64,000 bases of DNA from Oceanispirochaeta sp. (GTDB lineage: Bacteria > Spirochaetota > Spirochaetia > DSM-2461): NCBI GenBank assembly GCA_963663385.2, contig CAXXXD010000002.1, positions 224,001-288,000 of the forward strand. The letters are read 5' to 3'. Positions within the stretch are counted from its first letter, which is position 1. Each line of letters begins with the position of its first letter. Positions 12,668-43,287 of the stretch are shown here, in pieces. A program made the translations under genes and the position numbers. Below the pieces are notes generated by a model. It was not told where the DNA came from. It worked only from the letters and a program-made list of their open reading frames with translations, and ran no database searches.

Positions 12668-12814
12668 TACAGTATTTATTACTGCTTCGGGTATAATTAC
12701 TGATACTGCTGTTCTGATACCAAGAAAGCAAGATTTGTCTTTGTTTCTCTCTACTGTCTGATGTTCCAGATATTCCCTTTATAGAAGACTGTTCTTTACT
12801 TGATCCGGGAGGAC

Positions 12815-13825: not shown

Positions 13826-13861
13826 GATCCTATTATTGGGGGAAAACTGGATTTAATCAAT

Positions 13862-13907
13862 AGGAAAAGGTTTTCCCTTGACAGGAAAAGGTTTTCCTAT
13901 GTATCCT
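13862..13907. promoter_or_regulatory. Tandem LacI-type operators flanking a TTGACA -35
   Basis: AGGAAAAGGTTTTCC(C/T) at 13862 and 13883; TTGACA at 13878; TATCCT at 13902. Confidence 0.75.
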
Positions 13908-13939
13908 TGGATTTAGATAACAGCTATAAGGAGACAAAT

Positions 13940-25916: not shown

Positions 25917-27379
25917 ACCGGGATACGGATGCGGCAGATTGTTCCCGGAGTGTCCATTGCCGTTATACTCAAACAGGGCCTCCCGTAGTTCAGTTCAAGC
26001 CGCCGGATAACATTTCGAATTCCCATGGACTTTGTTTCATAGTCAGGGTTCATTATTTCATTAATCCTTTCTGAAGATATTCCACAGCCGTTATCGCTTA
26101 TTTCTATCAGAACTCCTTTCTCCTCCTTAAATGCTTTCAGACTGATTGTCCCCGGACGGGAGATAGGCTCAAGGCCATGCTTGATGGCATTCTCAACAAG
26201 GGGTTGCAGGATAAGGGCAGGAACCTGTGTCTGCAGTATCTCTGCATCAATGTCTTCCCTGTAGGACAGTTTTTCTCCAAATCGGGTCTTTTGGATATGT
26301 ATATAACTGTTTATCAGTTCTATCTCTTCCTCCAGAGTCACGATTCTCTTCTGCATAACAAGATTGTAGCGAAGCAGGTCGGAAAGGTTTCGGATCATTT
26401 GTCCTGTCCGGGGTGCTTCTTCAAGGTTGCTTAAGGAATCAATGATGTTCAGGGTATTAAACAGAAAGTGCGGGTTGATTTGTGACTGAAGAAGAGCCAG
26501 TTCCGATTCTTTCAGAAGATTCTCTGTCAGGTGATGCTGAATTTCCCGGTCTTTCAGTTTCTGCTCAAGTTCAGCCTTCTCCTGAATCTCTTCAATCTGA
26601 CAGGTAATGTGCCTGGACATCTCGTTAAAAGAGCGGTACAAAATGGCTATTTCATCCTTCCGGGTGGGAACGTTAAGGTCTGTATGTTTTGCGTTTTTCC
26701 CGAACCGGATCAATTCCATGGCCAGCCGATGTATAGGTTTTGAGATAGATACACTGAAATTCCATGCCAGAAAATAGCAGAAGAGTATTATTATTAGGAG
26801 AACGCTGATATTGATTCTAAGGCTTTTATTCATCTGCATCTTGAAACCAAGGAAGAAGGATCTGAGATTATCCAGAAAGAGAGAATTCAGTTTGTCCAGT
26901 TCTTCCTGTATATATTCGGACAGGTTCAATAGATCGGATTCGGTTCTCCAGACATAAATGCTTTCTGCTCCTTCATCAAACATTTTAAGAAGATCAGCCC
27001 CCCTCTCACTGTAAGTATCGAACATGGCATTCAGGTCTCGCAGGGAATTCCTGATATCCTCATCATCAGTAATCCCTTTAAATTGATTCAACAGGCTTTT
27101 CACCATTGAATAGTCCTGTCTGTAGGATATAAGGTATTCGTCATTGCCGCTTCGGATATAATTGCTGATACTGCTGTTCATTAACTGAAGATGTTTATGA
27201 ATGCTGTGGAGTTCAATCTGATCGTCCACTTTCTTTGAGAGTACTCTATCCTGAGAAGTTATTCTGATCAGTGTATAACTGTTTAGACCTGCAAGGGTGA
27301 GGATTATAACAAAAAATGATCCCAGCAGTTTAAGCCTGAGACCGTAAGGTAGATTTTCCGGAATGTTACGGTTATCCAT
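25913..27379 (-). CDS. YesM-type sensor histidine kinase (HAMP + His_kinase)
   Basis: 2 TM, DEI HAMP motif, LQSQINPHFLFNTL, LQPLVENAIKHG. Confidence 0.95.
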   Translation of the reverse strand: MDNRNIPENLPYGLRLKLLGSFFVIILTLAGLNSYTLIRITSQDRVLSKKVDDQIELHSIHKHLQLMNSSISNYIRSGNDEYLISYRQDYSMVKSLLNQFKGITDDEDIRNSLRDLNAMFDTYSERGADLLKMFDEGAESIYVWRTESDLLNLSEYIQEELDKLNSLFLDNLRSFFLGFKMQMNKSLRINISVLLIIILFCYFLAWNFSVSISKPIHRLAMELIRFGKNAKHTDLNVPTRKDEIAILYRSFNEMSRHITCQIEEIQEKAELEQKLKDREIQHHLTENLLKESELALLQSQINPHFLFNTLNIIDSLSNLEEAPRTGQMIRNLSDLLRYNLVMQKRIVTLEEEIELINSYIHIQKTRFGEKLSYREDIDAEILQTQVPALILQPLVENAIKHGLEPISRPGTISLKAFKEEKGVLIEISDNGCGISSERINEIMNPDYETKSMGIRNVIRRLELNYGRPCLSITAMDTPGTICRIRIPV

Positions 27380-27470: not shown

Positions 27471-27974
27471 TCAATACCTCCTGCTGTCATAAGCCCAGTG
27501 CAGCAGGGCCTGCCTCTGCCTCTTCCGGCACTCAAGAACTCCGTGGGGGCAGTTAATCCTGATCTGGGCAATATGCCTGGTCATCTGCCTCCATCTTTTA
27601 ATCTGCCTCCCGTCATCATCCGACCGCCTGCCATTGTAGTAGCGGCAGTACCACTGGAACCAGCCTCTTGGATCCTCCGGATAAATCCACCCCTTCCGCT
27701 GCCAGTATTGAAGGCTTTTCGAAGCATTGACTCCAAAGAAATTTAAAGCCGGATCATGCTTTTCATGACAGAATCTCACCCCATCAAACCAGTCCTCCGG
27801 AAACTCATCTGTGCAGTCGCTCATATACTTCCCGCCGAAGACACCCAGTTTCAGCATCTCCCCCGGGGTGAGTTCCGGCTTAAAATCCGGATGGAAATTT
27901 TCTCCCTCCGGCTCTGTCAGTAAATAGCGGTAGTTCTTCTGCATAAGGTCGTTTACAACAATCTCTTTGATCAT
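27471..27974 (-). CDS. Conserved hypothetical protein
   Basis: FKPELTPGEMLKLGVFGGKY and DPRGWFQWYCRYYNGRR motifs; ATG 27974 lies 1 nt after the DegV stop. Confidence 0.8.
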   Translation of the reverse strand: MIKEIVVNDLMQKNYRYLLTEPEGENFHPDFKPELTPGEMLKLGVFGGKYMSDCTDEFPEDWFDGVRFCHEKHDPALNFFGVNASKSLQYWQRKGWIYPEDPRGWFQWYCRYYNGRRSDDDGRQIKRWRQMTRHIAQIRINCPHGVLECRKRQRQALLHWAYDSRRY

Positions 27975-27975
27975 C

Positions 27976-29781
27976 CTATTCTTTTTCAACCACCCCTATG
28001 GCCAGAGCGCCCCGACCCGAATGCATACCCACCACAGAGGATATATCGGAAATATAATCCGGTGCCTTTTTCAGAATTCCTTCAAGAAGAACGGAAAACT
28101 CTCCAGCCTTCTTTTCTGAGTCTGCATGGACTATGGCATAGGATTCTATTCCTTTCTCTTTTTCCGTATTCTGAATGATACGGGCAATTTTTTTCATAAG
28201 CTGCCCCCGGGTAAAAGCCTTGTCCATGGCTTTTCCTTTCCCCTTTTCATCCAGAGAGACAATCGGTTTGATCCGCAGAGCCCGGGCAATAAACCCTTTA
28301 AGCGGGCTCACGCGGCCTCCCTTTACCATGTATTTGAAAGTACTGACGCTTACATAGATTTTTATCCGCTTTTTCAGCGCCTCCGCAATTGAGACAAGCT
28401 CCTCAAAGCTTTTTCCTTCTGCCGCCTTAATGGCAACTTCTTTTACAAGCAGTCCCTGCGCCACAGAGTTGAGGCAGGTATCCAGAACGGCAATCCTTAA
28501 TTTGTCCCGGTTGAATCTTTCGGCCACTTTTTTCATCTGGTTCCAGGTCCCGCTGAGGGATTTTCCCACAGACAGAACAAGGATATTCTCGTAGTGTTCC
28601 AGAAGATACTGGTAAACAGACTGCACACTGGCCTCGTCGGGGAGGGAACTGCCCGGAAAGGAACTCCTCTGCTGCTGCTGGCGATAGAACTGTCCGGGGG
28701 TGATGGTTACCCGGTCTATATATTCCTCATTGTCCCAGAGTATTTTCAGGCTGATTACATGGACCTGATATTTATCCAGGATTTCCTGAGAAATATCCGC
28801 AATCGAATCGGTCAGGACAGCTGTTTTTGACAGTCTGTTGTTCATAACCTGTTCCTGCCTGATCATATCGTCCGCTTTCTGCTCGGCTACTTCCCCGTAT
28901 TTTCTCAAAAGATCCACAACCTCCCAGGGGTAGTTGGTATGGATATGTATGCGGTCCTTTTCTTTTCCTTTGCTGATAATCAGGGAGTCCCCTTTATCTG
29001 CCAGCTTCTCCTTCAGCACCTTATGGCTCGTCCGTGGTCTGTTTAACAGAATTTCCGTACAGTAGCGGTGTGTTACCCTGTTTCTCAGGCTGTGTCTGGT
29101 GGCTGTGCTTATAATACCGCTGAGGTATTCACTCTGATTTAAAGTCTTTCTGAAGGAAATAGGCACAGGCCCCTTGTAGCGGATCATTTCCGCTCCTTCC
29201 AGAAAGGAAACGACTCCCAGGGCTCCCGCATCAATTACATCATTGTCCTTTAGTACTTTAAGCTGGTTCTTTGTATTGCCCAGCACCTTTTGAGCTGTCT
29301 CCAGGGCTTTTTCAAACACCTGTCCCAGTGGTTTCCTGTCCCGGCTTTCCTGGTAGATGGAATCCGACCAGGCATTTAATACCGTCAGGATGGTTCCCTC
29401 CACAGGGGTTTCCATGGCGTCGTAGGCCATTTCCACCGATTTCCTGGCAGCTTCGGCAAATTCATGTATGGTAAGGGCGTCCTTTCCATCCGTATTAATG
29501 GCCAGGCCGTTCAGATACTGTGAGAAAATAAGCCCCGAATTCCCTCTGGCGCTTTCAAGGGATATACTGGCCATACTACTTAACACCTTTGAGGCGGATC
29601 TGTCCGATTCCAGACGGTTCACAATCATCTTGATGGTTCGCACAAGGTTGTTTCCCGTGTCCCCGTCGGCAACGGGAAATACGTTGATTTCATTCAGGTA
29701 CTCTCTCTGTTTCCGTATACTCTGGAAGCCCAGCAGAAAACTGTGATAAAAATGGTATCCGTTCAGGCAGGCTTCGTTCAT
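27976..29781 (-). CDS. DAK2 (FakA-like) + DegV (FakB-like) fusion; putative fatty acid kinase
   Basis: INVFPVADGDTGNN, ARGNSG, PVEGTILTV, DAGA; then TDS, LSGT, KGGR, MHSG of DegV. Confidence 0.92.
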   Translation of the reverse strand: MNEACLNGYHFYHSFLLGFQSIRKQREYLNEINVFPVADGDTGNNLVRTIKMIVNRLESDRSASKVLSSMASISLESARGNSGLIFSQYLNGLAINTDGKDALTIHEFAEAARKSVEMAYDAMETPVEGTILTVLNAWSDSIYQESRDRKPLGQVFEKALETAQKVLGNTKNQLKVLKDNDVIDAGALGVVSFLEGAEMIRYKGPVPISFRKTLNQSEYLSGIISTATRHSLRNRVTHRYCTEILLNRPRTSHKVLKEKLADKGDSLIISKGKEKDRIHIHTNYPWEVVDLLRKYGEVAEQKADDMIRQEQVMNNRLSKTAVLTDSIADISQEILDKYQVHVISLKILWDNEEYIDRVTITPGQFYRQQQQRSSFPGSSLPDEASVQSVYQYLLEHYENILVLSVGKSLSGTWNQMKKVAERFNRDKLRIAVLDTCLNSVAQGLLVKEVAIKAAEGKSFEELVSIAEALKKRIKIYVSVSTFKYMVKGGRVSPLKGFIARALRIKPIVSLDEKGKGKAMDKAFTRGQLMKKIARIIQNTEKEKGIESYAIVHADSEKKAGEFSVLLEGILKKAPDYISDISSVVGMHSGRGALAIGVVEKE

Positions 29782-30308
29782 TACCTTGCTCCTGTTTGTT
29801 CCATGTAGATAATTTTATCCCGGTCAAATCCCCTTCTTTCCATCCTGGTAATAATACTCTCCAGTTTGTCCGGATCCATGGAGGGGTCTCTTGCCATAAT
29901 CCACAGGTATTTGTAGTTACTCGTGGCTATAACCGTGTAGGAGTAGGTCTCATCCAGTTCTATAATGTAGTAGGGGAGCTTAAGAGGCCACAGGGGGCGG
30001 ACCCGCCAATCCGCATTGGTTTCATTGTTATAAATCCATCCCTTCTGATACATGATTTTTTCTTTACCCTTTTTTGTAAAAGTGTACTCAACCCTTATGT
30101 TTCCCTCTTTGTCAAAACTGTAGTTTTCCACCCCGTTGCTGGCCCCTTTCTCAAAACTGGTGGGTATCAGAGCCAGAACAAACCAGTCTCCGGAAAATTT
30201 TTCCATATCCACGTAATCTACAGTTTTGTGAAACGCTTCTTTCTCACCGCCTGCCCAGGCTGTCATCGCTGTTCCCATTATGGTTAAAAAAATAATTGTA
30301 TTTTTCAT
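29781..30308 (-). CDS. Lipocalin (Blc-like), exported
   Basis: VDMEKFSGDWF (GxW), YYIIELDETY, YLWIMAR; signal peptide ending AWAGG. Confidence 0.9.
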   Translation of the reverse strand: MKNTIIFLTIMGTAMTAWAGGEKEAFHKTVDYVDMEKFSGDWFVLALIPTSFEKGASNGVENYSFDKEGNIRVEYTFTKKGKEKIMYQKGWIYNNETNADWRVRPLWPLKLPYYIIELDETYSYTVIATSNYKYLWIMARDPSMDPDKLESIITRMERRGFDRDKIIYMEQTGAR

Positions 30309-30309
30309 T

Positions 30310-31200
30310 TTATCCTTCCTTCTTCTTTTCCAATTCTAAGGCAAAGTCATAGGCCTTATCCAGCAGATTCGGGATATAGCCTATTCTGGAATAGGACGCC
30401 GCCATTTCCTTGTTGAATCCTCTCCCCGATATAACAATGGGACAGGAAATGCTGCCGCTTTCATCCAGATTCTTCAGATACGCGTTAAGTCCGTTCTGAA
30501 ACAGGTCCGTAATAATAGAGATATTTATCAGATCCGGTTTGTATTTTTCAGCCAGTAAAATCAGATCATTTACGGGAACATCGGGCCCAAGGAAATAGGT
30601 CCTCCAGCCCCTGTTCCGCAGAAGCTGGGAATACATGAAAACACCCAGGTCATGTTTGTCCGACGGGGCGCATAATCCCAGCCATACATTCTGTTCTGTG
30701 TCCTCTTTTTCTGTATTATTTCTTTCATTGGCAGAAATCAGGGCTATCAGCTCCCTTAACCGTTCACTTATCAGATGCTCTTCCAGTACCGATAGGGTTC
30801 CCCCCTGCCACCGGATACCTGTTTCATACAGCGCCGGGAGTATTATTTCACGGAAGCTTTCCCGCAGATCATATCCCCCGGATCTCTTCCAACCCAGAAT
30901 ATAATTCAGACAGTGGTCAAAGGAGTCATTTAATATACTGTGAAGCAGCTCTCCCGTATTGAATGTATCCCGGTTTAATCCTTTTCCGGCTGGTCTTACA
31001 TGGCAGAAAAGGAGATCGAGCGATAATCCCAGTGTTTCTGCCAGTTTAATAAGGGTTTTCTCCCCGGGAAATCTTGTGCCTCTTTCGTAATTGGCAATGC
31101 TCACCTGACCCAGGCCGGATTCTTTACCCAGTTCTGATTGGGTAAAACCCATTTTCTTTCTATAAAACCTTAGATTCCTGCCGAAAATATTATCATTCAT
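30310..31200 (-). CDS. XRE-HTH regulator with CarH-type cobalamin-binding domains
   Basis: HTH_3 (TQSELG...IANYERG...P); W-x9-EH (30810-30775); D-x-H-x-x-G (30660-30652); LGPDVP. Confidence 0.88.
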   Translation of the reverse strand: MNDNIFGRNLRFYRKKMGFTQSELGKESGLGQVSIANYERGTRFPGEKTLIKLAETLGLSLDLLFCHVRPAGKGLNRDTFNTGELLHSILNDSFDHCLNYILGWKRSGGYDLRESFREIILPALYETGIRWQGGTLSVLEEHLISERLRELIALISANERNNTEKEDTEQNVWLGLCAPSDKHDLGVFMYSQLLRNRGWRTYFLGPDVPVNDLILLAEKYKPDLINISIITDLFQNGLNAYLKNLDESGSISCPIVISGRGFNKEMAASYSRIGYIPNLLDKAYDFALELEKKKEG

Positions 31201-31206
31201 ATTCTG

Positions 31207-31270
31207 AATATAACATTAAGTTATATAAAAGTCAAAAAAACTTGCAATAATAACAATATGGTATTATTAT
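31207..31270. promoter_or_regulatory. Back-to-back sigma70 promoters, each with a palindromic operator
   Basis: - strand TTGACT(31235)-17-TATATT(31212) with ATATAAC-N5-GTTATAT (31208-31226); + strand TTGCAA(31242)-17-TATTAT(31265) with AATAATAAC-N5-GGTATTATT (31246-31268). Confidence 0.75.
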
Positions 31271-31298
31271 TAAATTACTAGGAAATAGGAGAGAAAAA

Positions 31299-32021
31299 AT
31301 GAAACAGATTGTTTTAATGATAATAATTTCAATATTTATGGAGAGTGCTTTTTCAAACGAGGCTGTAGAGGTCATGAGAGGATATATTTACAGAAAGGGA
31401 ACTCAGGAGCAGGACCTGATGTATGTGCAGAAGGAGATAAGGCAACAGTTTGATAAAGCAGAAAGTATCAGTCACCAGTATTACGGCGCTGACAATGAGC
31501 TTGAAGCTTTCGAAACGGTGAAACTGGAAAACGGAGTAATCGATCTGTATGAAACAGCTATCAACGGGCTGAATTTTGAAGGATCATTGCAGATAAAAGA
31601 AAACAGCATTAAACTTATGAGAGTACAGGATGGTAAATTTAAAGAGAGGGAAATCAGAATTAAAGAGAATCTTATTGTTGGCCCCATGCTTCCTTCTTTT
31701 GTAGAGCAGAATGCAGATGATCTTATGGCCGGAGAAAAGGTAGTATTTTATCTGCCCTTCTTTGATGGTATGACTTTGATTCCCATGGTTCTGGAAGCTA
31801 AAGACAGCCGGGATAACGGAGAAAGTAATACTTTTACCATAGAAATGAAGCTGAAAAGCAGGCTGTTGAGCCTTTTTATAGACACCATTGATATGGTTCT
31901 GGATAAAAATACAGGCAAAATTGTGGAAATCCACGGCCCTACCATACTACCGGATCCTGTGAACTCCAGTTCCAGAGAATTTGTTGATGCCAATATCTAC
32001 TACGAATATGGAGGAATCTGA
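31299..32021 (+). CDS. Exported hypothetical protein
   Basis: Signal peptide ending AFS; SD AGGAGAG; first gene of a tightly coupled operon. Confidence 0.8.
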
Positions 32022-32815
32022 TGATAAATTTATTTAGTGAACAACCGGTTCTGGCCTCTTTTATACTAAGTGTTTCGGTAAACCTGATTTTTTTTCTGGT
32101 AGCTCTTACTTTAAAAACGGATAAAGTGACGGACCTGTCCTACAGCCTGTCTTTTATGGCGATTGCCCCCCTGCTTCTGGCGGCAAACGGGATGAACTTC
32201 AGTTTACAGCAGCTGATTGTGACCCTGGCTATTGTTGTGTGGGGCATCCGTTTGGGGAGCTACCTTTTTTACAGAATCCTTTTAACCAAAACGGATGAGC
32301 GTTTTGATGATAAACGGAATAACCCCAAAAGACTGACTGCCTTCTGGCTGCTTCAGATTACTGCCGTATGGCTTATATTGATGCCCTATTCCTTTTATCT
32401 TACCTCAAGAACAGTAGGGGGCATGAGCTTTATAACCCTGTCAGGTCTGGCCGTTTATGCCGCAGGTTTGATCATCGAATCCGTCAGCGATTATCAGAAA
32501 TTCATCTTTAAAAAACAGCCGGACAACAAGGGAAAATGGATGGACAAAGGTCTATGGCACTGGTCCAGGCACCCCAACTACTTTGGGGAGATGCTGGTCT
32601 GGTGGGGGCTTTTTGTTGTAGTGGTTCCCTATTTGACAGGGTTGAAATTACTGACCCTGATTGGCCCTGTTTTTATTACCCTGCTGCTCCTTTTCGTGAG
32701 CGGTATTCCCCTGCTGGAAAAAAGCGCTGAAAAAAAATATGGCAATAATCCCGATTATGTGGCCTACCGTGATTCAACCAGCCTGCTCATTCCTCTCCCG
32801 AGGAAAAAGAACTGA
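32021..32815 (+). CDS. DUF1295 / steroid 5-alpha-reductase-like membrane protein
   Basis: [34 protein letters not shown]. Confidence 0.92.
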
Positions 32816-33450
32816 TGCTTTTTGTTGTACTGCTAGCCGCCTACCTGACCGGTTCTATTCCTTTTTCCTTCCTTGTGGCGTATGGAATTTCGGGAGGGGA
32901 TATAAGAAAACAGGGAAGCGGTAACGCGGGAGCCAGTAATGTTTTAAGAACCCTGGGGTGGAAAGCGGCTCTGCCCGCTGCTCTGGGAGATTTTTTCAAA
33001 GCCTTTATACCCGTTTTTATGGCTGAGGAGATTATGAATACGGCAGGGCTGGCTGATTTGAATCCGGATCACTTCAGGCTGGGGATTCTTTTCTTCATAA
33101 TGATAGGGCATGTATTCCCTGTCTGGCTGAAGTTCAGGGGAGGGAAGGGCGTCGCCTCTGCTGCCGGGGGCATTTCGGCCCTGTTCCCTCCGGCCTTTCC
33201 TTTCTGTTTGATCCTTTTTACAGTAGTGGCGGGAGTCACCCGCTATGCCTCAGTGGCGTCCCTGATCACAGCCTGGTCACTGCCTGTGTACTATACGTTT
33301 TTTACTTTGAAATTTTCCAATGATTTTTCTTCTGTTTTTTTGGTTTTTTTTCTGCTGACAGGGCTGCTTATAACTGTTTTTCACAGAAAGAATATACGAC
33401 GGTTATTACAGGGAAAAGAAAATACAATTGAAATAAGGAAACGCAGATGA
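32815..33450 (+). CDS. plsY: Acyl-phosphate:glycerol-3-phosphate acyltransferase
   Basis: GSIP, GSGNAGASNVLR, GHVFP, FRGGKGVA, HRKNIRRL. Confidence 0.95.
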   Translation: MLFVVLLAAYLTGSIPFSFLVAYGISGGDIRKQGSGNAGASNVLRTLGWKAALPAALGDFFKAFIPVFMAEEIMNTAGLADLNPDHFRLGILFFIMIGHVFPVWLKFRGGKGVASAAGGISALFPPAFPFCLILFTVVAGVTRYASVASLITAWSLPVYYTFFTLKFSNDFSSVFLVFFLLTGLLITVFHRKNIRRLLQGKENTIEIRKRR

Positions 33451-34190
33451 ATGACTCCATGATGAATACCCTGAGAACCCTGGCCTTCTTCTCCTGGATG
33501 TGGGTTGTCCTGTTTTTTTCACTGCTTCTTCTTATCCCTTTGAACATTCTGGGCTTATTGGGGATGAAACAGAGGCAGTCCCGTTTCATTATAAAAGCTA
33601 CAAAAAAATGGGCCCGGCATCTTATTTTTACTTCAGGGTCAAAAATACGGGTAAGCGGAAGGGAAAATATACCGAAAGAACCAGGCTACTGTGTAGTGGC
33701 CAACCATCAGAGTAACTTTGATATTCCCCTGATTATGACCGTTCTGCCGGATAATGCGGGATTTATCGGCAAATACGAGATGAAAAAGGTTCCCCTGCTG
33801 AATTCGTGGATGAAGGCTCTGAACTGCGTCTTTATAAAAAGGGATAATATCAGACAGTCCATTGAGGGTATAAAAGAAGCCCTTGACCAGGTACAGGATG
33901 GAAAAACCATGGTCCTGTTTCCCGAAGGGACCAGAAGCAGGAACGGCATACCCGGGAAGTTTCATCAGGCCGGGATCCGTCTGGCCCTGGAAGCGGGAGT
34001 TCCTGTCCTGCCTGTCACCATTAAAAACTCCTTCAATATGTTTGAAAAAAACAAAAAAATCATGCCCACCCATGTGGAAATTGTCATACATGAAATGCGT
34101 AAAGGATTCGGACAGAACATAAATGCTGCCGTATCGGAGCTTATAAATACTGTTACCAAACCCATACCTGCAGGAGATGAAACAAAATGA
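33447..34190 (+). CDS. plsC: 1-acyl-sn-glycerol-3-phosphate acyltransferase
   Basis: NHQSNFD (HX4D), FIKR, FPEGTRS, VPVLPV. Confidence 0.93.
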   Translation: MNDSMMNTLRTLAFFSWMWVVLFFSLLLLIPLNILGLLGMKQRQSRFIIKATKKWARHLIFTSGSKIRVSGRENIPKEPGYCVVANHQSNFDIPLIMTVLPDNAGFIGKYEMKKVPLLNSWMKALNCVFIKRDNIRQSIEGIKEALDQVQDGKTMVLFPEGTRSRNGIPGKFHQAGIRLALEAGVPVLPVTIKNSFNMFEKNKKIMPTHVEIVIHEMRKGFGQNINAAVSELINTVTKPIPAGDETK

Positions 34191-34996
34191 AATTGATAGT
34201 GAATATTGTATTGTGTATATGGCTGGCTGCTGCGGCTTTTGCCGATGATACCATCAGGATACAGGCCGGTGCGGAATTCGGGTTTATATCCATTATGAAG
34301 CATGAAATCCAGTCGGGCAGCTCCTCTGACAAGGGCGATGTGTTTGATTACAGAACCCAGGGGAATCAGGATGTCCTTTTTCCCTTTTACCGCTATAAAG
34401 CAGAGGTCTCCCTGCCGCAAAAACATCATGTTGTATTTCTTTATCAGCCTCTTACTGTTGTTACACAGGCCGAGATTACAGAGTCTTTCCGGTATAATGA
34501 GGTGGACTATTCTGAAGAGGATGGATTTCTGAACCTGACTTATGCTTTTGATTTCTGGCGCTTCTCCTATCTCTATGATCTATACGATACGGGTTACTTC
34601 TTTTTCAGCCCCGGACTTTCCCTGCAAATCAGGAATGCTTCCATTGTTTTCAGGGCAGAGGAGAGCAGTAAAGGATCCATCTCCGACGGGATCGGACCTG
34701 TTCCCATAATTAAAATGCGAACGGGTTACAAGTGGGATAATGGTGTTTATATAATGTTTGAAGGGGATGGATTTTACGCCAGCAATAAATTCATAAATGG
34801 CGCCGAGTACCCCTTCACCGGATATATATATGATCTTTCCGGCAGAACCGGATACAGGATTAATACGCATTCCTCGGCCTATCTGAATCTGAGATTCCTG
34901 GGAGGAGGGGCTGAGGGAACAAATGACGAGGATGAATATACCTATAATGATCTTCATACCATTGGCTTAACTCTCGGGTACCAGTATGAGTTCTGA
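34187..34996 (+). CDS. Putative outer-membrane beta-barrel protein
   Basis: Signal peptide ending AAAFA; aromatic-rich amphipathic strands; C-terminal LGYQYEF beta-signal. Confidence 0.75.
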   Translation: MKLIVNIVLCIWLAAAAFADDTIRIQAGAEFGFISIMKHEIQSGSSSDKGDVFDYRTQGNQDVLFPFYRYKAEVSLPQKHHVVFLYQPLTVVTQAEITESFRYNEVDYSEEDGFLNLTYAFDFWRFSYLYDLYDTGYFFFSPGLSLQIRNASIVFRAEESSKGSISDGIGPVPIIKMRTGYKWDNGVYIMFEGDGFYASNKFINGAEYPFTGYIYDLSGRTGYRINTHSSAYLNLRFLGGGAEGTNDEDEYTYNDLHTIGLTLGYQYEF

Positions 34997-35021
34997 TTAC
35001 AGCAGAAAAAGGGGAACCCTA

Positions 35022-36149
35022 ATGAAAAATGCAATAATAGTAATCCTGGCAGCTTCTCTTTTAATTATGACATCTTCGTGCAGCAAGGACAAATCCGAGG
35101 ATTCTGTTAGCGCTGCATCCTGGGATGCCGGGGAGGATAATTCTGTCGTATCCGTAGAAGCCCTGACGGTGAGCAGGGGGAAGCTTGTCACCAATGTGTC
35201 CGGATCGGGGATTATCAGAGGGGCTTCGGAAGCCTGGAGTATTGCGGAGAGTGACGGCATTATAGAAGAAGTGTATGTTTCACCCGGTGCTTATGTGAAA
35301 GAAGGGGATCCCCTGTTAAAGGTAGAAGATAATCTGGCTTATTGGGATATGACCAGAGCAGAAAAGCAGTATGAGATGTCTACCATTGAGTACAAGGGGA
35401 CAAAAAACTCTTTTGAAAATGGTGGAACTACAGAAATTGAGTACAAGAGGGTTCTGGCTGAGTGGCATAACAGGCGGCTTATTTTTGAGCAGGCTAAAAA
35501 GGCCTATGAAGATTGTACTTTAAAAGCACCCATAAGCGGGTATGTTTCTGTGATGGATACATCTTTAAGCAGGGGAAATTACCTAAACAGAAATACACGG
35601 GTTCTGAAGGTTGTAAACAGAGAGAATTTTGTTATGGAGATTTTCCCCGGTCAGCGAGAAATTGGATTGATAAATAAGGATTCTCCCGTTTCTGTTCATA
35701 TCGAACTGGCTGATCGAATCCTGGAAAACAAAGGCTCCATTCTGGATATTTCAGGAGGGTCTGATGAAAGCTCCGGTAGTTTTCCTGTCCGAATCCTGTG
35801 GGAAAATACATGGGGTGACGAAGTGCTCCCCGGCATGACAGCCCGGGTTGAAGTGGCCACCAACGGGGCTGTGGAAGGCATCATCGTCCCCTTTGACAAA
35901 GTAGTGGAAAGAAACGGTGATCTATGGGTTTTCCTTTCGGTGAAGGAGTCCGGTTCGGATGAACCGGCCGGGGAGGAAGGTGTTGTCCTGGTCAGAAAAG
36001 TGCGCCTGGGAGCCCGTCTGGGAAATCGTGTCATGATAGAGGAGGGGCTGCAGGAAGGGGATGTCCTTATTACATCGGGATTTGCCTCTCTGTCCCCCGA
36101 CAAAAAAGTCAAGCTTACCCTACTCGGTAAAACAGGAGATTTCAAATGA
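35022..36149 (+). CDS. RND efflux periplasmic adaptor (MFP) lipoprotein
   Basis: Lipobox TSSC; VKEGDPL, LKAPISG, LPGMTARV, GLQEGD. Confidence 0.92.
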   Translation: MKNAIIVILAASLLIMTSSCSKDKSEDSVSAASWDAGEDNSVVSVEALTVSRGKLVTNVSGSGIIRGASEAWSIAESDGIIEEVYVSPGAYVKEGDPLLKVEDNLAYWDMTRAEKQYEMSTIEYKGTKNSFENGGTTEIEYKRVLAEWHNRRLIFEQAKKAYEDCTLKAPISGYVSVMDTSLSRGNYLNRNTRVLKVVNRENFVMEIFPGQREIGLINKDSPVSVHIELADRILENKGSILDISGGSDESSGSFPVRILWENTWGDEVLPGMTARVEVATNGAVEGIIVPFDKVVERNGDLWVFLSVKESGSDEPAGEEGVVLVRKVRLGARLGNRVMIEEGLQEGDVLITSGFASLSPDKKVKLTLLGKTGDFK

Positions 36150-39100
36150 GTCTCTCCCGATTTTCTGTCAATAACGGTGTTTTTCTCAATATCCTGATGA
36201 TTTTTATACTTGTTCTGGGTTTCTTTTCCGTGAGCCGGATGCCCCGGGAGCAGTATAGTGAAGTCCCCTTTTACTTTGTAAATATAGTGGTTCCCTTTCC
36301 CGGAGCCGGTGCTGAAGATGTGGAACAGCAGGTGACCATTCCCATAGAGAATGAGATGCAGTCTCTGGATGAACTGGAGGAGATCTCCTCCGTATCCAGT
36401 GAAGGACTGGCGGTTGTGCAGATCCAGTTTAACGACGGTATAAGCAGTAATCAGTTCGACAAGCTCTTTGCGGATGTCAGAACGAATTTTACAAAAGCCA
36501 ATCTTCCCGATGGGGTTCTGGAAGAAACGATTGACGATTTTTCTTCCACGGATTTTCTGCCTGTGGCGGAAGTGGTCGTGTCCGGACAGGTTGAATATGA
36601 GACCCTTTTAAAGCTGGCCAGAGACCTGGAGAATGATTTAAGGGTCATAAAGGATGTTTCAGGTGTTGAAATTGTAGGCGCCCGGGACAAACAGATTGCC
36701 ATCGAAATGAATCAGGCCATGGCGGAGTCTCTCAATATATCGCCGTCTGAAGTAGCCCTGGCCGTGCAGGGAGGGAATATCTCCATTCCCGGTGGCAAAT
36801 TCAAGACAGGAGATTCGGAATATCTGGTCAGAACAACGGGTGGACTGGATGATGTGGAAGATTTTCAGTCCCTTATTCTCCGCAGGGGGCAGGACGGAAA
36901 GGGAAGTGTCCGGATTGGTCAGATAGCCCATGTAAATGAAAGATATGATCCGGAAGGGGTAAAAGCCCGGTTCAACGGAGAACCTTCTCTGGTTATCCGC
37001 CTGACAAAAATACCCGGAGGGGACGGGGTCGGTATCATTGATGAGACAAGAGATGTCCTGGCCGGGTATGCAAGGAATCTCTCCCCGAATATTTCCATCA
37101 ATCTGATTAATGATTCGACCATTCAGATACGGGACAGTCTGAATGTTCTGTTGAACAATGTCCTTCTGGGACTGGTTCTGCTGATTGTTATTCTGTACCT
37201 GTTCGTCGGTTTGAGAAACAGTTTGATGACGGCTCTCGGTATACCCGTAACCTTTGCCGCCTCCTTTGTCATCCTTGATGCCCTGGGGGAGACATTTAAT
37301 ACGAACACCCTTTTCGGGCTGGTCCTTGTTCTGGGACTGGTCGTGGATCATGCCATTGTGATTATTGAAAACAGTTACAGGCTGCAGGAAAAAGGGCTTT
37401 CCCCCCTGGAGGCGGCCGTGGAAGGGACCAGACAGGTTTCTCTGCCCGTTATAGCGGCAACGGGTACAACAGTTGCCGCTTTTCTCCCTCTTATGATACT
37501 GCCCGGAACAATCGGAAAATTCCTGAGGGTTATACCCTTTACCGTGTCCATCGCCCTGATTCTGTCCACTCTTGAAGCTTTGGTTTTCATACCCGATCAC
37601 TATGCCCACTGGCCTGCAAGAAAAAAATACAGCGAAGATAATCCCCGCTGGAATGCCTTCCGGAACGGATTCAAATGGCTTCTGGAGAAACTGTACAGAA
37701 GAAAAGGATTTACCGTCGCGGCCATTCTGATTGTGATGGTTCTCAGTTTTATGCTGGTTCCCCTGCTGGACCAGGATCTATTCAGCGCCGAGGACTATAC
37801 GGTTTTCTATATAGATCTCGAGATGGCTCCCGGAACGCCTCTGGGACGGACTGAAGAAATCCTGACCCGGTATGAACAGGCCCTGCTTCCTCTTGTAGGG
37901 CAGGGGGAAGTTACATCCCTGTCCCTCGCCATAGGATTTCTGGGGGGCGACAGCGGTAACCAGGTGCAAAGCAGTGTAGGGCAGTTGACGGTAGACCTGG
38001 CCGAAAGGAAAGAGGGCCGGGAAAGATCGATTACAGCTATCATGGCAGATGCCAGGGAATTAACGGAAAACATCCCCGGAGCAGATTATGTAGAGTTCAG
38101 AAAAGCGGCAAACGGCCCTCCTACGGATGCTCCTGTAGCCTTCAGGCTGTTCGGAGATAACAGGGAGGAACTGGTCGCATCCTCTGAGCGTCTGCAGAGG
38201 GAGCTTCAGACTTTCCCCGAGCTGTTCGGAATTAAGGATGATTACGAACCCGGAACGCCGGAGCTCCGTATTGTGGTGGATCAGGAACAGGCTGCGGCTT
38301 TTGGTATGAGCCCGGCCCTGGTGGGACAGGCCGTAAGGAATGCCCTGGACGGGTATAGTGCCGGAACCTATTTCAAGAATAATGAAGAAATAGAAATTAT
38401 CGTCAGTTACAGGGGCGCTGGAGAAGGCCAGCTTCAGGACCTTCTTCAGTTAAGCCTGGTTACGCCTGCGGGACAATCCATTCCTTTTTCATCTATATGC
38501 CGGATAGAGCCTGTTTCTTCTCCTTCCTCCATTAAGCGTGTGGACGGCGAAAGGGAAATCCAGGTAACGAGCGAAGCCTATTCAACCGGGAATCTGGCCC
38601 TGATAAATCAGGCAATACAAAAGGTCTATAATGAGGAACTGAAACCGCGGTTCCCCGGAGTCACCCTTAATATCGGAGGAGAATTTTCCGAATTCGGTGA
38701 TTTGCTGATTCAGATCCTGAGAATCTTTCTGATCGGGATCTTCCTTATATATATCATTCTGGCTACTCAGTTCAACTCCTATACACAACCCCTTATAATC
38801 CTCTTTTCCGTCCCCCTGGCGTTTATGGGGGTTATCCTGTATCTGGTTGTTTCGGGAAACCCCTTCTCGACAACAGTTATCTATGCCGGCGTTGCCCTGG
38901 CGGGAATAGCCGTTAACGACTCCATTGTGCTGATCAGTTTTATAAATGAAGAGAGGAAGAACGGGTTGGCCACAGCCCATGCGGTAAAGGATGCCGCGGC
39001 CACTCGGCTCAGACCGATTATTTTGACTTCCCTGACAACCATTGCCGGGCTGATCCCTACCGCCATAGGACTGGGGGGAAAGTCGGTTGTATGGGGACCT

Positions 39101-39202
39101 ATGGCTGGAACCATAATATTCGGACTGATGTTTTCTACGGTAACCGCTCTTGTCTTCATACCCTGTCTGTACGGGCTTATTTATGACAGAGAAAAAAAAT
39201 AG
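36146..39202 (+). CDS. RND transporter permease (AcrB/D/F family)
   Basis: 1018 aa; LGLVVDHAIVIIEN, GIAVNDSIVL, RLRPIILT. Confidence 0.95.
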   Translation: MSLSRFSVNNGVFLNILMIFILVLGFFSVSRMPREQYSEVPFYFVNIVVPFPGAGAEDVEQQVTIPIENEMQSLDELEEISSVSSEGLAVVQIQFNDGISSNQFDKLFADVRTNFTKANLPDGVLEETIDDFSSTDFLPVAEVVVSGQVEYETLLKLARDLENDLRVIKDVSGVEIVGARDKQIAIEMNQAMAESLNISPSEVALAVQGGNISIPGGKFKTGDSEYLVRTTGGLDDVEDFQSLILRRGQDGKGSVRIGQIAHVNERYDPEGVKARFNGEPSLVIRLTKIPGGDGVGIIDETRDVLAGYARNLSPNISINLINDSTIQIRDSLNVLLNNVLLGLVLLIVILYLFVGLRNSLMTALGIPVTFAASFVILDALGETFNTNTLFGLVLVLGLVVDHAIVIIENSYRLQEKGLSPLEAAVEGTRQVSLPVIAATGTTVAAFLPLMILPGTIGKFLRVIPFTVSIALILSTLEALVFIPDHYAHWPARKKYSEDNPRWNAFRNGFKWLLEKLYRRKGFTVAAILIVMVLSFMLVPLLDQDLFSAEDYTVFYIDLEMAPGTPLGRTEEILTRYEQALLPLVGQGEVTSLSLAIGFLGGDSGNQVQSSVGQLTVDLAERKEGRERSITAIMADARELTENIPGADYVEFRKAANGPPTDAPVAFRLFGDNREELVASSERLQRELQTFPELFGIKDDYEPGTPELRIVVDQEQAAAFGMSPALVGQAVRNALDGYSAGTYFKNNEEIEIIVSYRGAGEGQLQDLLQLSLVTPAGQSIPFSSICRIEPVSSPSSIKRVDGEREIQVTSEAYSTGNLALINQAIQKVYNEELKPRFPGVTLNIGGEFSEFGDLLIQILRIFLIGIFLIYIILATQFNSYTQPLIILFSVPLAFMGVILYLVVSGNPFSTTVIYAGVALAGIAVNDSIVLISFINEERKNGLATAHAVKDAAATRLRPIILTSLTTIAGLIPTAIGLGGKSVVWGPMAGTIIFGLMFSTVTALVFIPCLYGLIYDREKK

Positions 39203-39213
39203 TCCCGGCTCCA

Positions 39214-39615
39214 TTACTGAAATCCTGAACCAGTCGGTCCGGGGAGGGGGGAGTATTTTTCTATATAGGATATAAGTTTTTCCGGATCAATAGGCTTTGA
39301 CAGGAATCCGGCCGCATTCAGATCTTCGGCTTTTTTCCTTTCCGCTTCGTTACTGTTACCAGAAAGAAAAACAACGGGGATCTCCTTTAATACGGGGGTT
39401 GCCTTTATCTGTCTGCATACTTCAAAGCCGTCAATTCCCGGCATCATAATATCGAGCAGGACAAGATCCGGCCTTTCATCTTCTGTTATAACTTCAAGAG
39501 CTTCCTCCCCGTCAAGGGCTACCGCAATATCATCCCGCTCTCCGATTATTGCCAATATAATATCAATATTGGCAGGTGTATCATCAACAACCAGTATCAT
39601 CGTTTTTCTCCCCAT
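39214..39615 (-). CDS. Single-domain response regulator
   Basis: VVDD, LLDIMMP, FLS, KPID. Confidence 0.9.
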   Translation of the reverse strand: MGRKTMILVVDDTPANIDIILAIIGERDDIAVALDGEEALEVITEDERPDLVLLDIMMPGIDGFEVCRQIKATPVLKEIPVVFLSGNSNEAERKKAEDLNAAGFLSKPIDPEKLISYIEKYSPLPGPTGSGFQ

Positions 39616-39801
39616 TCAACTTCAGTTCTTTATCAAATGGAATCCAATAAATCCGTCGTACTCGTCCTTCTATAATTATTATCTATTTATTATTGTTTTT
39701 CCTGTTTTTTCTCTTAAATTTGGCAATAGATCTATCCGGGTATTATACTGATAGAGACGGTTCTAATGTATGTTTGTGTTTATTTTATGCGATGGTGAAG
39801 A

Positions 39802-42800
39802 ATGAATGACAGTCTGTTTCTCTGCAGTGCTCCGGGGAAGCTGTTTATGTTTTATCCTATGCGGTCCGGGATGTCTCTGAAAGCACTGCTCTTCATACTG
39901 ATATGTTTTATTTCTCCCTTTGTGCTTTTCTCTCAGAATACGGCACATGTATTTGTTCTGCACTCGTATCATGAAGGACTGCCCTGGAGCAGGGGACTGG
40001 AGAAGGGCCTGGATCAGGGTTTTGACAATGCGGGCGTTCCGGTTGAACTTCATGTGGAATACCTGGACAGGATCAGGGCAAAGGATACATCAATTCTGCA
40101 GGATCTGGAGAATCTGTTTAAAAAGAAACTGAAGGGTATCCCTGTTAATGCGGTAATTGCTACCGATGATCCGGCATTCAGCTTCCTGCTGGAGAGAAGG
40201 GAGGCCCTTTTCCCGGGAGTTCCCCTGTTTTTCTGCGGGCCCAACGGCCTTAAGTCGTCGGGGATAAAGGATATAACGGCAATCACTGGTATCGCAGAGA
40301 ATCCTGATATGAGAGGAACCATTGATCTTGTTCAGAAACTCCACCCTCAGGCCGGGGAATTTGCGGTGGTTTCTGATCGCAACCCGGCCAGCCTCCGTGT
40401 CCTGAATACGTTGAATCAGATTCAGAGGGAAATGAAGGAATCCTTTACCCTTAATGTGCTGACAGATGAGAGTCTGGACAGTTTGAAAAGGGAACTGCAC
40501 TCTCTTCCCGCGGGAACACCTGTTCTGTATCATGCTTTTATGCAGGATTCCTCAGGCCGGGAATACGGGAGTAATCTTGCTGTTCTGGAGGAGTTGAGTA
40601 CTGAGGTCAATCTTCCTTTCTATACTTTTAAAAAGATTGACATGGGGCATGGAGCAGTCGGGGGATCAGTCATAAGCGAGGAGCTGATGGCTTCTCTGAC
40701 GGCACAGATGGTTGCCGAGTATCTGAAGGGGAAATCTCTCCGGGATATTCCGCCGGTTTTTGATACGCCGCAGGTTTTTATTTTTGATGCGAACCAGTTG
40801 AAGCGACTGAACATTCCCGAGTCAGAACTCCCTTCCGGGAGTATTGTCATCAATCGCAGAATTTCAACCTATGAAGCGAATAAAGCCCTGTTCCGGAGTG
40901 TTAGTATCATATTCTGCCTACTGGTGTTATTGGTATCTGTTCTGGCTCTGAATGTCAGGCGCCGGATTGCTGCGGAAAGGCAGCTGAAACTTATAAACGA
41001 GGACCTGGAACAGAGGGTTAGGGACCGGACTGAAGACTTTAATCAGGCCCTGCTCAGGGCTGAAGCCGCTACCAGGGTAAAGAGTGACTTCCTTGCCAAT
41101 ATGAGTCATGAAATCCGAACGCCCATGAATGCAATTATCGGTATGTCTCATCTGATCTCGCAGACACCGCTGAACGACAAGCAGAAAGACTATATAGACA
41201 AGATTACCATGGCCGGTAAATCCCTGCTGAATATAATAAATGATATTCTGGATTTTTCCAGAATTGAAGCAGGCAAGCTGGAAATCCAGAGCAGGGAATT
41301 CAATCTGGATAATGTGCTGGACAACCTTTCCAATCTCAATTCACAGCGCGCTTCCGCAAAGGGGCTGGAACTCCTTTTCCGTGTGGATCCCGATGTTCCG
41401 CGCATTCTAAGAGGTGATGATCTGCGGCTGGGGCAGGTGCTTCTCAATCTGGTTTCCAATGCTGTTAAATTTACCGATAAAGGAGAAATCCTTGTATCTG
41501 TGAATGTGAAAGAGAGAACCGGTGAGAAGGTTATTCTGGAGTTCTGTGTCAGGGATTCGGGAATCGGGATGACTCGTGAACAGATGGCCACTCTGTTTGA
41601 ATCCTTTACCCAGGCGGATGCGTCCACTACCAGAAAATACGGAGGAACAGGGCTGGGGCTGGCTATTTCCAAATACCTGGCGAATCTGATGAATGGCGTG
41701 ATCTCTGTTGAAAGTACGCCCGGTAAAGGAAGCCGGTTTACGGTTGCCCTTCCTTTTTATACGGGAAATCTCTCTTCTGCAGCGGCTCTGCCGTCTCCCG
41801 GAGGGCATAATAACTATAATGTACTGATTATTGATGATAACGAAACCAGCCGGGAGATCCTCTCTGAATACCTGAAGGCCTTTGGTTTTTCAACAGAAGA
41901 TGTCGAGAGTGCAGAAAAGGGAATTGAGCTGTTAAACACTGGAAAAAGGTCTTTTGAGATTGTTCTGATGGATTACCGGATGGCAGGGCTGGACGGTATT
42001 ACCGCAACCGAAACAATAAAAAGACAAAGTGGAGACGGACATGTCCCTGCGGTCATTCTGATCACAGCCTACGGACAGGATGACGTTCTTAAAAGGGCGG
42101 AAGCGGCGGGAGCCGACAGTGTTCTTATAAAACCGGTATCTCCTGTGGTTCTTTATAATGCTATTCTAAAGGCTTTGGGGCGGGAAGACATAGTTCCGTT
42201 GAACAGGAATATTCAGGCATCCGTACCCAGAGGCTGTTTTAAGGGGCATAAGGCTCTTGTTGTAGAAGATGTTGAAATTAATCAGCAGGTGGCTAAAGAA
42301 CTGCTGGAAGGTTTTGGCCTGGAGGTGGATCTGGCAGGAAATGGGCAGGTTGCTCTGGATCAATATTTCAGCCCTCCCGGGCGGGAGGACTACTTCTCTC
42401 TTGTCTTTATGGATATCCAGATGCCAGTTATGAACGGGTTTGACGCGGCAAGAGGGATCCGGAAAATTAACCCGGCAATTCCTATTGTTGCCATGACGGC
42501 AAATACCATGGATGGGGACAGGGAAAAATCCCTTTCGGTTGGAATGAATGACTACATAACCAAACCGATTGATCCCGGCAAACTGTATCGGGTACTGGTC
42601 CGGCTGCTGGGGCTGCCGGAAGATGCCGGTCCAGATACAAAAATCCCTGAAGCAGCGCCTGCGGTTACGGCTAATCCTGTTCTGGATAAACTGATCGGAA
42701 TTGATGTGAATGATGGGCTTTGCAGGGTCGGCGGGAATGAAGAGTTGTATATAGAACTGATTCAGGATTTTTATAGAGAGTACAGGAATTCGGCAGAATC

Positions 42801-43287
42801 CTTTCTGTCTCTGATGGAAAAGGATAATAAGGAACCGGCCCGCCGTCTGGTCCACTCCCTGAAAGGAGTTGCCGGAAATCTGGGAATGAAGGATCTTCAT
42901 TCCGCTATCCAATCCCTGGAAAAAGCAGTAAAGGAAGAGGCGTACGATACGATCTGGACTTTTTATAGAACTTTTAAAGACCGGCTTGAAAGGGTTCTGA
43001 AAAGGATAGAGGCTGCCGGTCTTCTGGATACCGATAAAAACTCACCCTTCCCGGATTCTCCCTTCGAGAAAACAGAAGTCATTCATTCTCTGAAAACCTT
43101 TGTTACCTATGCATCCGGCAGACAGGCCAGACTGGCTGGTGATTCCATAAAGAGCCTTACGTCCCTTAACTGGCCGGAGGAATTTAAATTGAATTTTGAT
43201 GAAATCGCACGGCTGACTAAGGGGTATAAACTGAAGGAAGCCGGTGTAATGGCGGAAAACCTGGTTAGAAGTCTGGAGGAAAATTAA
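39802..43287 (+). CDS. Hybrid sensor kinase (periplasmic binding-type sensor, HisKA, HATPase, 2 REC, HPt)
   Basis: HSYH sensor motif; [17 protein letters not shown]; two receivers; [11 protein letters not shown]; true start may be 39871. Confidence 0.93.

Follow-up and report, generated by a model that had tools for sequence, protein, structure and literature searches.

A protein of 296 amino acids (aa) encoded in a 64,000-nucleotide (nt) stretch of Oceanispirochaeta sp. DNA (contig CAXXXD010000002.1, positions 224,001 to 288,000; hereafter the window) is proposed here to be a cobalamin-dependent, CarH-like, light-switched repressor that carries an XRE (Cro/C1) head and acts both on its own operon and on the divergent one. 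We give this reading a probability of roughly 0.6. The regulator gene lies in a locus (27471-39202) in which 11 open reading frames (ORFs), all present at the coordinates of Table 1, form two divergent, tightly packed gene strings. The left operon encodes, in leftward order, the regulator, a lipocalin, a 601-aa Dak2-FakA-DegV fusion and a 172-aa protein. The right operon (31299-39202) encodes a 240-aa exported protein (exp240), a DUF1295 protein, PlsY, PlsC, a 269-aa exported protein and the adaptor and permease of an RND pump. The proposal is carried by what was observed at this locus and in its relatives: the domain make-up of the regulator, its conserved ligand residues, a CarH-like fold, conserved operators and conserved gene partners.

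The cobalamin module and its family

Domains were called with Pfam and NCBIfam and the scores were judged against the cut-off of each model. The regulator matched HTH_3 (residues 10-64; 52 bits, cut-off 23), B12-binding_2 (residues 111-154; 25.8 bits, cut-off 23) and B12-binding (residues 175-261; 35.9 bits, cut-off 32.1). Its N-terminal Pfam matches were to HTH_3, HTH_19 and HTH_31, and no MerR family was found among its Pfam matches. The translation contained the motifs W131-QGGTLSVLE-E141-H142, D181-K-H183-D-L-G186 and L204-G-P-D-V-P209, with Gln132 directly after Trp131. An earlier interpretation made without database searches (the sequence-only reading) had described an XRE helix-turn-helix (HTH) with W-x9-EH, D-x-H-x-x-G and LGPDVP motifs, and a Gln in place of the His that follows Trp, and all of these were found as described. 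The best NCBIfam match was CarH (NF052513, 1e-13), which spanned only residues 113-231 and scored 51.2 bits against a cut-off of 400.

The AlphaFold model of the regulator, with a predicted local distance difference test (pLDDT) value of 88, was divided into an XRE/HTH_3 head (residues 6-65), a flexible linker (68-78, pLDDT <50), a four-helix bundle (about 82-162) and a Rossmann domain (about 172-296). Its top Foldseek matches were chains of TtCarH (5c8d, 5.4e-12). Chains comprising only the cobalamin-binding domain (CBD) aligned to the model with target-normalised template-modelling (TM) scores of 0.76-0.80 and root-mean-square deviations of 3.1-3.9 A over about 205-213 columns. When a profile of 25 homologues was compared with solved structures, the best match was the light-responsive CBD of Chloracidobacterium CtMerR (8jbs, 4.4e-19), TtCarH followed at about 1e-11, and the XRE head matched phage-type repressors (7t8i, 2.3e-12). 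Judged by these domain, motif and fold assignments, the regulator is a CarH-type cobalamin module on an XRE head.

The CBD was also predicted to form a homodimer, with a score of 0.67 compared to 0.00 for the best control. Of 30 proteins solved as one-chain pairs, 20 reached the mark applied to this score, as did 1 of 23 solved as single chains; the runs shared 87% or more of their contacts, and the partner pLDDT was 85 or higher. In the predicted interface, helix 137-157 of one chain packs against loop 200-216 (GxxxP) of the other in a CarH-like manner, so the pass may stem from likeness to the solved CarH dimers. As for cofactor supply, the genome (5.3 Mb, 98% complete) carries two CobA-type adenosyltransferase genes, and no PduO-type adenosyltransferase was found in it.

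Relatives of the regulator were collected in several ways. A word-based protein search returned 26 homologues, and all five with an organism name came from spirochaetes. A profile search (E <= 1e-20) matched 72 of 401 genomes of the window's class when CBD-only matches were counted, and 47 of the matches were full-length. From these searches a set of 50 loci was assembled (40 fetched with up to 9 kb on each side, plus 13 spirochaete loci, minus 3 duplicates). By these matches, the regulator family is common in Spirochaetia.

Light-type CBDs have been defined with SignatureFinder by the signature GxxW / EH / GxxH / GxxxP, in which W-x9-EH and GxxxP contact the adenosyl group and set these domains apart from enzyme CBDs (Yu et al., FEBS J 2024, PMC11796333). 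We counted conservation over 50 family rows from the window's class. G128, W131, E141, H142, H183 and G205 were present in every row, P209 in 45, and position 181 was always D or E. The regulator itself carries GxxW as G128-I-R-W131, EH as E141-H142 and GxxxP as G205-P-D-V-P209.

Operators and gene partners

The divergent operons are separated by 98 bp (31201-31298), and this spacer contains two predicted operators, O1 and O2 (Table 1). O1 overlies the spacer and the -10 element of the predicted promoter of the regulator itself, while O2 fills the spacer of the rightward promoter and touches its -10 element. On the right side, a GGAG-type ribosome-binding site precedes the ATG at 31299. On the left side, the regulator operon is probably transcribed into a leaderless mRNA, because the -10 element ends 6 nt before the ATG. 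In most family members, too, the regulator -10 element stops 6-7 nt short of the start codon, without a recognisable ribosome-binding site; leaderless mRNAs are therefore suggested family-wide.

The operator layout recurred in the relatives (loci numbered L001 onwards). A palindrome of the O1 type was located at exactly -17 in six other loci, with 6-7 of 7 arm pairs in L002, L009, L011, L012 and L013 and 5 of 7 in L001. Second palindromes were present at -56, -57 or -59 in L001, L002 and L053, with 7/7 arm pairs in L001 and 5/7 in L002. Sites with at least 6/7 arm pairs numbered 8 in 12 upstream regions, compared to a mean of 0.15 (maximum 3) in 500 shuffles. In a wider set, 19 of 48 regions had a start-proximal palindrome (0.88, maximum 5, in 300 shuffles) and 8 of the 48 had two sites (0.04 in shuffles), with spacings of 35, 39, 40, 40, 49, 50, 50 and 51; the case with spacing 35 is probably a GC-rich hairpin and not an operator. 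Arm sequences varied in this wider family (TATATC/GATATA, TAACAC/GTGTTA), whereas the layout was constant.

A distant regulon was considered and discarded, as O1-like sites at 12/14 or better numbered 16 genome-wide compared to 20 in a shuffled genome. The 14/14 site of O1 occurs once in the genome, and both 13/14 sites fall within ORFs. Since O1-like sites outside the locus were at chance level, the regulon was treated as local. We infer that the regulator would be a local, self-repressing protein that binds two palindromes, and two sites would suit the four heads of a dimer of dimers.

The sequence-only reading had suggested searching for relatives with the same neighbourhood, and the neighbourhood proved to be conserved. 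An orthologous pair of membrane-fusion protein (MFP) and RND permease adjoined the regulator in 22 of the 50 loci, at least one lipid gene (exp240, DUF1295, PlsY, PlsC, lipocalin or the fatty-acid kinase (Fak) fusion) did so in 11, and both kinds were found together in three. The RND orthologues were 50-73% identical, compared to 23-28% for the RND paralogues within the window's genome. Thus, it is the MFP-RND pump, and not the lipid genes, that accompanies the regulator most widely. Among the latter, exp240 preceded DUF1295 in every relative that carried the pair; the lipocalin adjoined the regulator in L002, L053, L057, L059 and L060 and lay further off in the same locus in L012 and L013. 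Homologues of the 269-aa protein were found near the regulator in L001, L002, L083, L085 and L091.

In five of the 50 loci, all from one clade, a protein of 295-322 aa (the 300-aa unknown, Table 1) directly followed the regulator. It had no Pfam family, its distinct versions were 69-80% identical, and the regulators at these loci were 34-37% identical to that of the window. A language-model look-up returned hypothetical proteins and, weakly, the acetoacetate-decarboxylase family. No copy was found in the window's genome.

Fifteen loci remained that had no pump, lipid or 300-aa partner, and 14 of them were scanned (the 2.8-kb L089 was left out). In 10 of these 14, genes for photolyase, carotenoid or isoprenoid synthesis or tocopherol-cyclase-like proteins stood beside the regulator. 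Photolyase was present in L067 (12 nt after the regulator), L080 and L085; CrtI-type desaturases/oxidases, lycopene cyclase or polyprenyl synthase in L072, L080, L084 and L091; mevalonate-type genes (HMG-CoA synthase, FMN_dh or GHMP kinases) in L063, L076, L090 and L091; and tocopherol-cyclase-like genes in L085 and L086. We take the FMN_dh gene at these loci to encode a type-2 isopentenyl diphosphate isomerase. The other four loci showed a cyclase, a GGDEF protein or unknowns. The photolyase and carotenoid contexts are the classical ones of CarH/LitR and provide the strongest argument that the family senses light. Together with the mevalonate and tocopherol-cyclase-like neighbours, these genes in other Spirochaetia lend comparative support to light as the likely signal.

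A quick maximum-likelihood tree of 50 rows, from which two loci had been dropped for short matches, was drawn with midpoint rooting, and no order of events was read from it. The window's regulator belonged to a supported 21-row clade in which the contexts were lipid, RND and 300-aa. The other side of the tree held RND clades and a photoprotection clade. The photolyase-linked L067 was sister to the RND-linked L065 and L068. One genome carried two regulator paralogues in tandem (L075:9058-10851), whose neighbours had no known family.

Genes of the locus and their genomic context

Within each string, adjacent genes were separated by 1 nt or overlapped by 1-14 nt. The sequence-only reading had placed the regulator between two tightly coupled operons. 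The tight coupling was evident, but the regulator is the first gene of the left operon rather than a free-standing gene, since it is on the same strand and ends 1 nt before the lipocalin gene. The gene families named in that reading on both sides were borne out by Pfam and NCBIfam; the 172-aa, 240-aa and 269-aa proteins had no Pfam family.

Table 1. Predicted regulatory elements and genes of the locus in window coordinates, and the 300-aa unknown in coordinates of the related loci
Feature	Coordinates	Strand	Basis
Operator O1 (predicted)	31208..31226	.	Perfect palindrome ATATAAC-N5-GTTATAT; centre 17 nt before regulator start codon
Regulator promoter (predicted)	31207..31235	-	TTGACT (31235-31230), 17 nt, TATATT (31212-31207), TG-extended; consensus scan 10/12
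Operator O2 (predicted)	31248..31266	.	Imperfect palindrome TAATAAC-N5-GGTATTA; 40 bp from O1 centre to centre
Right-operon promoter (predicted)	31242..31270	+	TTGCAA, 17 nt, TATTAT; 9/12, weak by itself
Regulator, 296 aa	30310..31200	-	HTH_3 + B12-binding_2 + B12-binding (Pfam)
Lipocalin (Blc-like), signal-peptide-like N-terminus	29781..30308	-	Lipocalin_2, 3.5e-30
Fused fatty-acid kinase, 601 aa, one chain	27976..29781	-	Pfam Dak2 + FakA-like_M + DegV
172-aa protein, last gene of left operon	27471..27989	-	No family
Exported beta-rich protein, 240 aa (exp240)	31299..32021	+	Predicted model, pLDDT 85
DUF1295 membrane protein (steroid-reductase/ICMT-like superfamily)	32021..32815	+	Pfam 6e-66
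PlsY, acyl-phosphate:glycerol-3-phosphate acyltransferase	32815..33450	+	TIGR00023, 158.9 vs cut-off 137.2
PlsC-type 1-acylglycerol-3-phosphate acyltransferase	33447..34190	+	TIGR00530, 108 vs cut-off 102.95
Exported protein, 269 aa, C-terminus ...YQYEF (aromatic end)	34187..34996	+	Sequence; no family
RND membrane-fusion (adaptor) protein, HlyD-type	34986..36149	+	TIGR01730, 143.6 vs cut-off 94.9
RND permease	36146..39202	+	Pfam ACR_tran, 618 bits
300-aa unknown	L006:7638-8549; L007:11036-11947; L008:10978-11946; L010:7941-8849; L011:2457-3344		No Pfam family

The lipocalin scored 72.7 bits against the Blc model NF007786, under its cut-off of 267. By its domains, the 601-aa chain has the make-up of a fatty acid kinase, with Dak2, the FakA middle domain and a FakB-like DegV domain. 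It missed the equivalog cut-offs of FakA (152.7 vs 975) and FakB1 (114 vs 350), as expected because the protein is a fusion. The RND permease remained under the cut-offs of the NCBIfam RND_permease subfamilies (532 and 431 vs 1250 bits); on these scores it is not assignable to the multidrug HAE1 type (AcrB, Mex) and is an RND permease of unassigned subfamily. The aromatic end of the 269-aa exported protein is that of a probable outer-membrane beta-barrel. For exp240, an open barrel of the DUF1849/LolA type was considered, and the likeness of its model (TM 0.40-0.44 to 6ntr (DUF1849), 0.24-0.30 to LolA) was too weak to assign a function.

The 172-aa protein gave no match in Pfam, even at E <= 5, or in a sequence search of the PDB. 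The sequence-only reading had called it a conserved unknown. It is very widely conserved elsewhere, and its sequence is unusually well kept: at least 8000 homologue matches were found, with about 69-89% identity among the 120 matches listed, and the named ones in this list came from very distant lineages (Desulfuromonas, Geobacter, Pirellulales, Peregrinibacteria, Woesearchaeota and Nanoarchaeota). However, it is not a conserved part of the neighbourhood, because none of the 50 related loci has it, and it is probably a passenger at this locus.

The lipid genes had been interpreted in the sequence-only reading as a fatty-acid salvage programme. This was not supported by the genome content: PlsY, DegV and the Dak2-DegV fusion each occur in a single copy, all at this locus, and no PlsX was found in the genome, on which grounds an accessory salvage role was rejected. 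PlsX was found in 1 of 31 related genomes, the window's genome counted among them. The substrate of PlsY is acyl-phosphate; since no PlsX was found, the fused kinase is the only source of this substrate that was found. Judged by gene content, the locus is therefore one of core phospholipid synthesis and holds the only acyl-phosphate route found. Two ketoacyl synthases and three distant PlsC-like paralogues are encoded elsewhere in the genome. Despite these ketoacyl synthases, these spirochaetes may feed PlsY only through the fused fatty-acid kinase, and a PlsB-type route to phosphatidic acid may exist besides PlsY.

On both sides the locus is flanked by two-component genes, as judged from their translations (24417-27379 and 39214-43287). 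One flank encodes a histidine kinase and a regulator that joins a receiver to an AraC-type part; on the other lie a lone receiver and a hybrid kinase of 1161 aa. Elsewhere in the window, the G+C content drops to 0.355-0.394 at 8001-14000, compared to 0.44-0.50 around it, and this stretch may be foreign or of surface-polysaccharide type.

Proposed mechanism, competing explanations and known systems

In the mechanism proposed here, the CBDs would be loaded with adenosylcobalamin (AdoCbl) in the dark and pair head to tail, and the dimers would then associate into a dimer of dimers, which would set two pairs of HTH heads on the two palindromes 40 bp apart. Occupancy of O1 would block the leaderless promoter of the regulator, lipocalin, fused kinase and 172-aa protein, and occupancy of O2 would block the divergent promoter of exp240, DUF1295, PlsY, PlsC, the barrel protein, MFP and RND. 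Light would break the Co-C bond and loosen the oligomer, so that both operons would be de-repressed. Repression would be self-limiting, because the regulator would repress its own gene, and this could leave basal expression of PlsY and the fused kinase. The output would be an increase in phospholipid synthesis or re-acylation fed by acyl-phosphate, combined with the handling of lipids (lipocalin, DUF1295) and RND export. Its purpose might be membrane photoprotection or remodelling under light; membrane lipid renewal and export under light stress is plausible.

Several observations speak against this proposal. The third signature element is altered in the regulator (S180-D-K-H183, Ser for Gly); Gly occupies this position in 39 of the 50 rows and Ser in eight, the regulator and seven others, and the Gly contact runs via the main-chain carbonyl (PMC11796333). 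The bis-His histidine, which in TtCarH (H132) forms the bis-His light state, was present in none of the 50 rows. According to the same study, this position is Arg in CtMerR, Gln in SasPcob and Tyr in AbDPcob, all counted as new photoreceptors; the light response of CtMerR was seen by crystal structure and that of SasPcob is stated by the authors to be confirmed, and a Gln after Trp is thus compatible with a light response (PMC11796333). The study also reports that effective monomerisation of TtCarH required oxygen and that anaerobic light altered CtMerR but did not make it monomerise (PMC11796333), while the host of the window may be an anaerobe. The sequence-only reading had called the organism a probable anaerobe, which the genome suggests weakly: no cytochrome bd oxidase was found in it, and no search for haem-copper oxidases was made. 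At the DNA level, O2 is imperfect (6/7 arm pairs, 5/6 in the wider-set scan) and lies in an AT-rich spacer, the promoter scan gave about as many calls as chance would produce in this region (23 against 19.6), and no second palindrome toward the divergent plsY was found in L009, L012 and L013. Because PlsY is encoded only in the right operon and DegV/Fak only in the left, tight repression in the dark would be lethal; control would therefore be partial, or internal promoters would be used. Photolyase, phytoene/squalene synthase and DUF2177 were not found in the genome, which thus shows no classical light regulon. A Pfam search of the genome for heliorhodopsin gave no match, which carries no weight because its control likewise matched in no genome. 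Finally, the record title of one relative suggests a dark habitat.

Some of these points could fit a sensor of cobalamin status that has no light role, in which a corrinoid, as a nutrient or toxic-ligand signal, sets the pump and lipid genes. TetR-type regulators sense substrates of the pumps they control, and those of the RND pump might be corrinoids or other tetrapyrroles. The efflux pump is indeed the most conserved partner (22/50), no gene for photolyase, phytoene/squalene synthase or DUF2177 was found in the genome, the organism is possibly an anaerobe, and the invariant His-on residue H183 would be required by any cobalamin form. We nevertheless consider such a sensor unlikely, given that the adenosyl-contacting W-x9-EH is kept in 50/50 rows and GxxxP in 45/50, that relatives adjoin photolyase and carotenoid genes, and that cobalamin status is normally sensed by riboswitches, with 0 Rfam matches in a scan of the entire window at the gathering threshold. 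Light could alternatively switch only the regulator, lipocalin and Fak operon, the PlsY-PlsC-RND operon being constitutive and O2 a chance AT-rich palindrome. The need for dark expression of the sole PlsY, the imperfect O2, the lack of a second site toward plsY in the three loci named above and the chance-level promoter scan would all agree with this. It is rendered improbable by the second sites, which lie at -56 to -59 in the window, L001, L002 and L053 and near -72 in four loci of the RND clade, by spacings of 39-40 and 49-51 that differ by one helical turn, by the eight two-site regions where 0.04 were expected, and by RND and lipid genes that stay adjacent to the regulator through many rearrangements. 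Lastly, that the regulated genes concern lipids and efflux, and that the bis-His histidine is missing, would be in line with a cobalamin domain serving as a fixed oligomerisation or redox module, the true signal being a lipid, a fatty acid or the cobalt redox state. As none of the Pfam domains of the regulator is a lipid-binding one, conservation of the adenosyl-pocket residues is complete and the family occurs in photoprotection contexts, we regard this as very improbable.

Of the light-switched repressor of both operons we also drew a fuller picture, which is tentative and, taken as a whole, rather doubtful. In it, an XRE-type B12 photoreceptor in non-phototrophic, possibly anaerobic spirochaetes would bridge two operators as a dimer of dimers and bring under light control both a dedicated RND exporter and the one route by which the cell makes phosphatidic acid from acyl-phosphate, through the fused Fak, PlsY and PlsC; light would then tune membrane building and lipid export, not pigments or DNA repair. 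If so, the tuning could follow day and night in mats or sediments.

The closest known systems are CarH and class I LitR (Thermus thermophilus, Myxococcus xanthus, Bacillus megaterium; 5c8a-5c8f, 8c31-8c37), which are AdoCbl-dependent photoreceptor repressors. The regulator shares with them the four-helix bundle and Rossmann cobalamin module, W-x9-EH, the His-on ligand, a head-to-tail CBD dimer and operators over promoter -10 regions (the last two predicted here), and relatives that adjoin carotenoid and photolyase genes. In contrast, its head is XRE/HTH_3 and not the MerR winged helix, it has no His after Trp, it scores 51 bits where the NCBIfam CarH model demands 400, and the outputs at this locus are lipid and efflux genes. 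CarH operators are direct repeats, whereas those predicted here are palindromes, two per region. To our knowledge, the bench-characterised B12 photoreceptor transcription factors are MerR-type. If the proposal holds, an XRE head with simple palindromes would give this light switch a second way of binding DNA, and the regulator would be a compact part for green-light gene control. The known outputs of B12 light sensing would widen from pigments and photolyase to an RND pump and core phospholipid synthesis. Palindromic operators, two per region, are also the arrangement of phage-type XRE repressors (P22 C2, 434 cI, the ICEBs1 ImmR-like 7t8i, SinR), which the head matches; unlike them, the regulator ends in a cobalamin module and not in a peptidase or simple dimerisation domain. 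Lambda cI combines self-repression with a leaderless mRNA.

CtMerR, SasPcob and AbDPcob (8jbs/8jbt, 8j2w-8j2y), which were found with SignatureFinder, share GxxW, EH and GxxxP with the regulator and likewise have no bis-His histidine, the Gln of SasPcob being the regulator's own residue; they differ in carrying a MerR head or photocobilin-type modules, and the regulator has SxxH where the published signature has GxxH (PMC11796333). The same article mentions HTH-fused light-type CBDs in general, and its text and supplement text name no XRE type and no spirochaetes (PMC11796333). Database clusters with HTH_3, B12-binding_2 and B12-binding have 125, 69 and 154 members, and most of those with a known phylum are Bacillota. 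In the literature searched, no paper paired XRE with CarH and B12-binding, XRE with a cobalamin-binding domain, or cobalamin photoreceptors with spirochaetes. The sequence-only reading had presented the locus as a candidate new system, a claim that is not supported in this general form: the HTH_3-B12 architecture is already known from these clusters, HTH-fused light-type CBDs have been published, and so has a link of light sensors to DegV and DUF1295 genes, in the heliorhodopsin neighbourhoods.

DUF1295 probably belongs to the conserved sigma-E/ChrR singlet-oxygen regulon and to LitR-type regulons. UfaO was considered as a DUF1295 protein and rejected, as it is DUF1365. DUF1295, DUF1365 and DUF2177 genes are listed in a gene-expression table in a study of singlet-oxygen acclimation in Chlamydomonas (PMC4067076). 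Heliorhodopsin neighbourhoods resemble the present locus in that a light sensor is again found with a fatty-acid-kinase component and DUF1295: the neighbours are DegV, occasional Dak2-DegV fusions, DUF1295 and DUF2177, and light-dependent membrane lipid remodelling was proposed (Chazan et al., bioRxiv 10.1101/2021.02.16.431466). The sensor is a rhodopsin there and would be a B12 transcription factor here, the words PlsY and lipocalin are absent from the heliorhodopsin text, and DUF2177 was not found in the genome analysed here. As the same lipid genes stand beside heliorhodopsins and beside this regulator, two unrelated light sensors would point to one lipid response, and the locus provides what a test of this shared response would need: regulator, operator and a defined set of genes.

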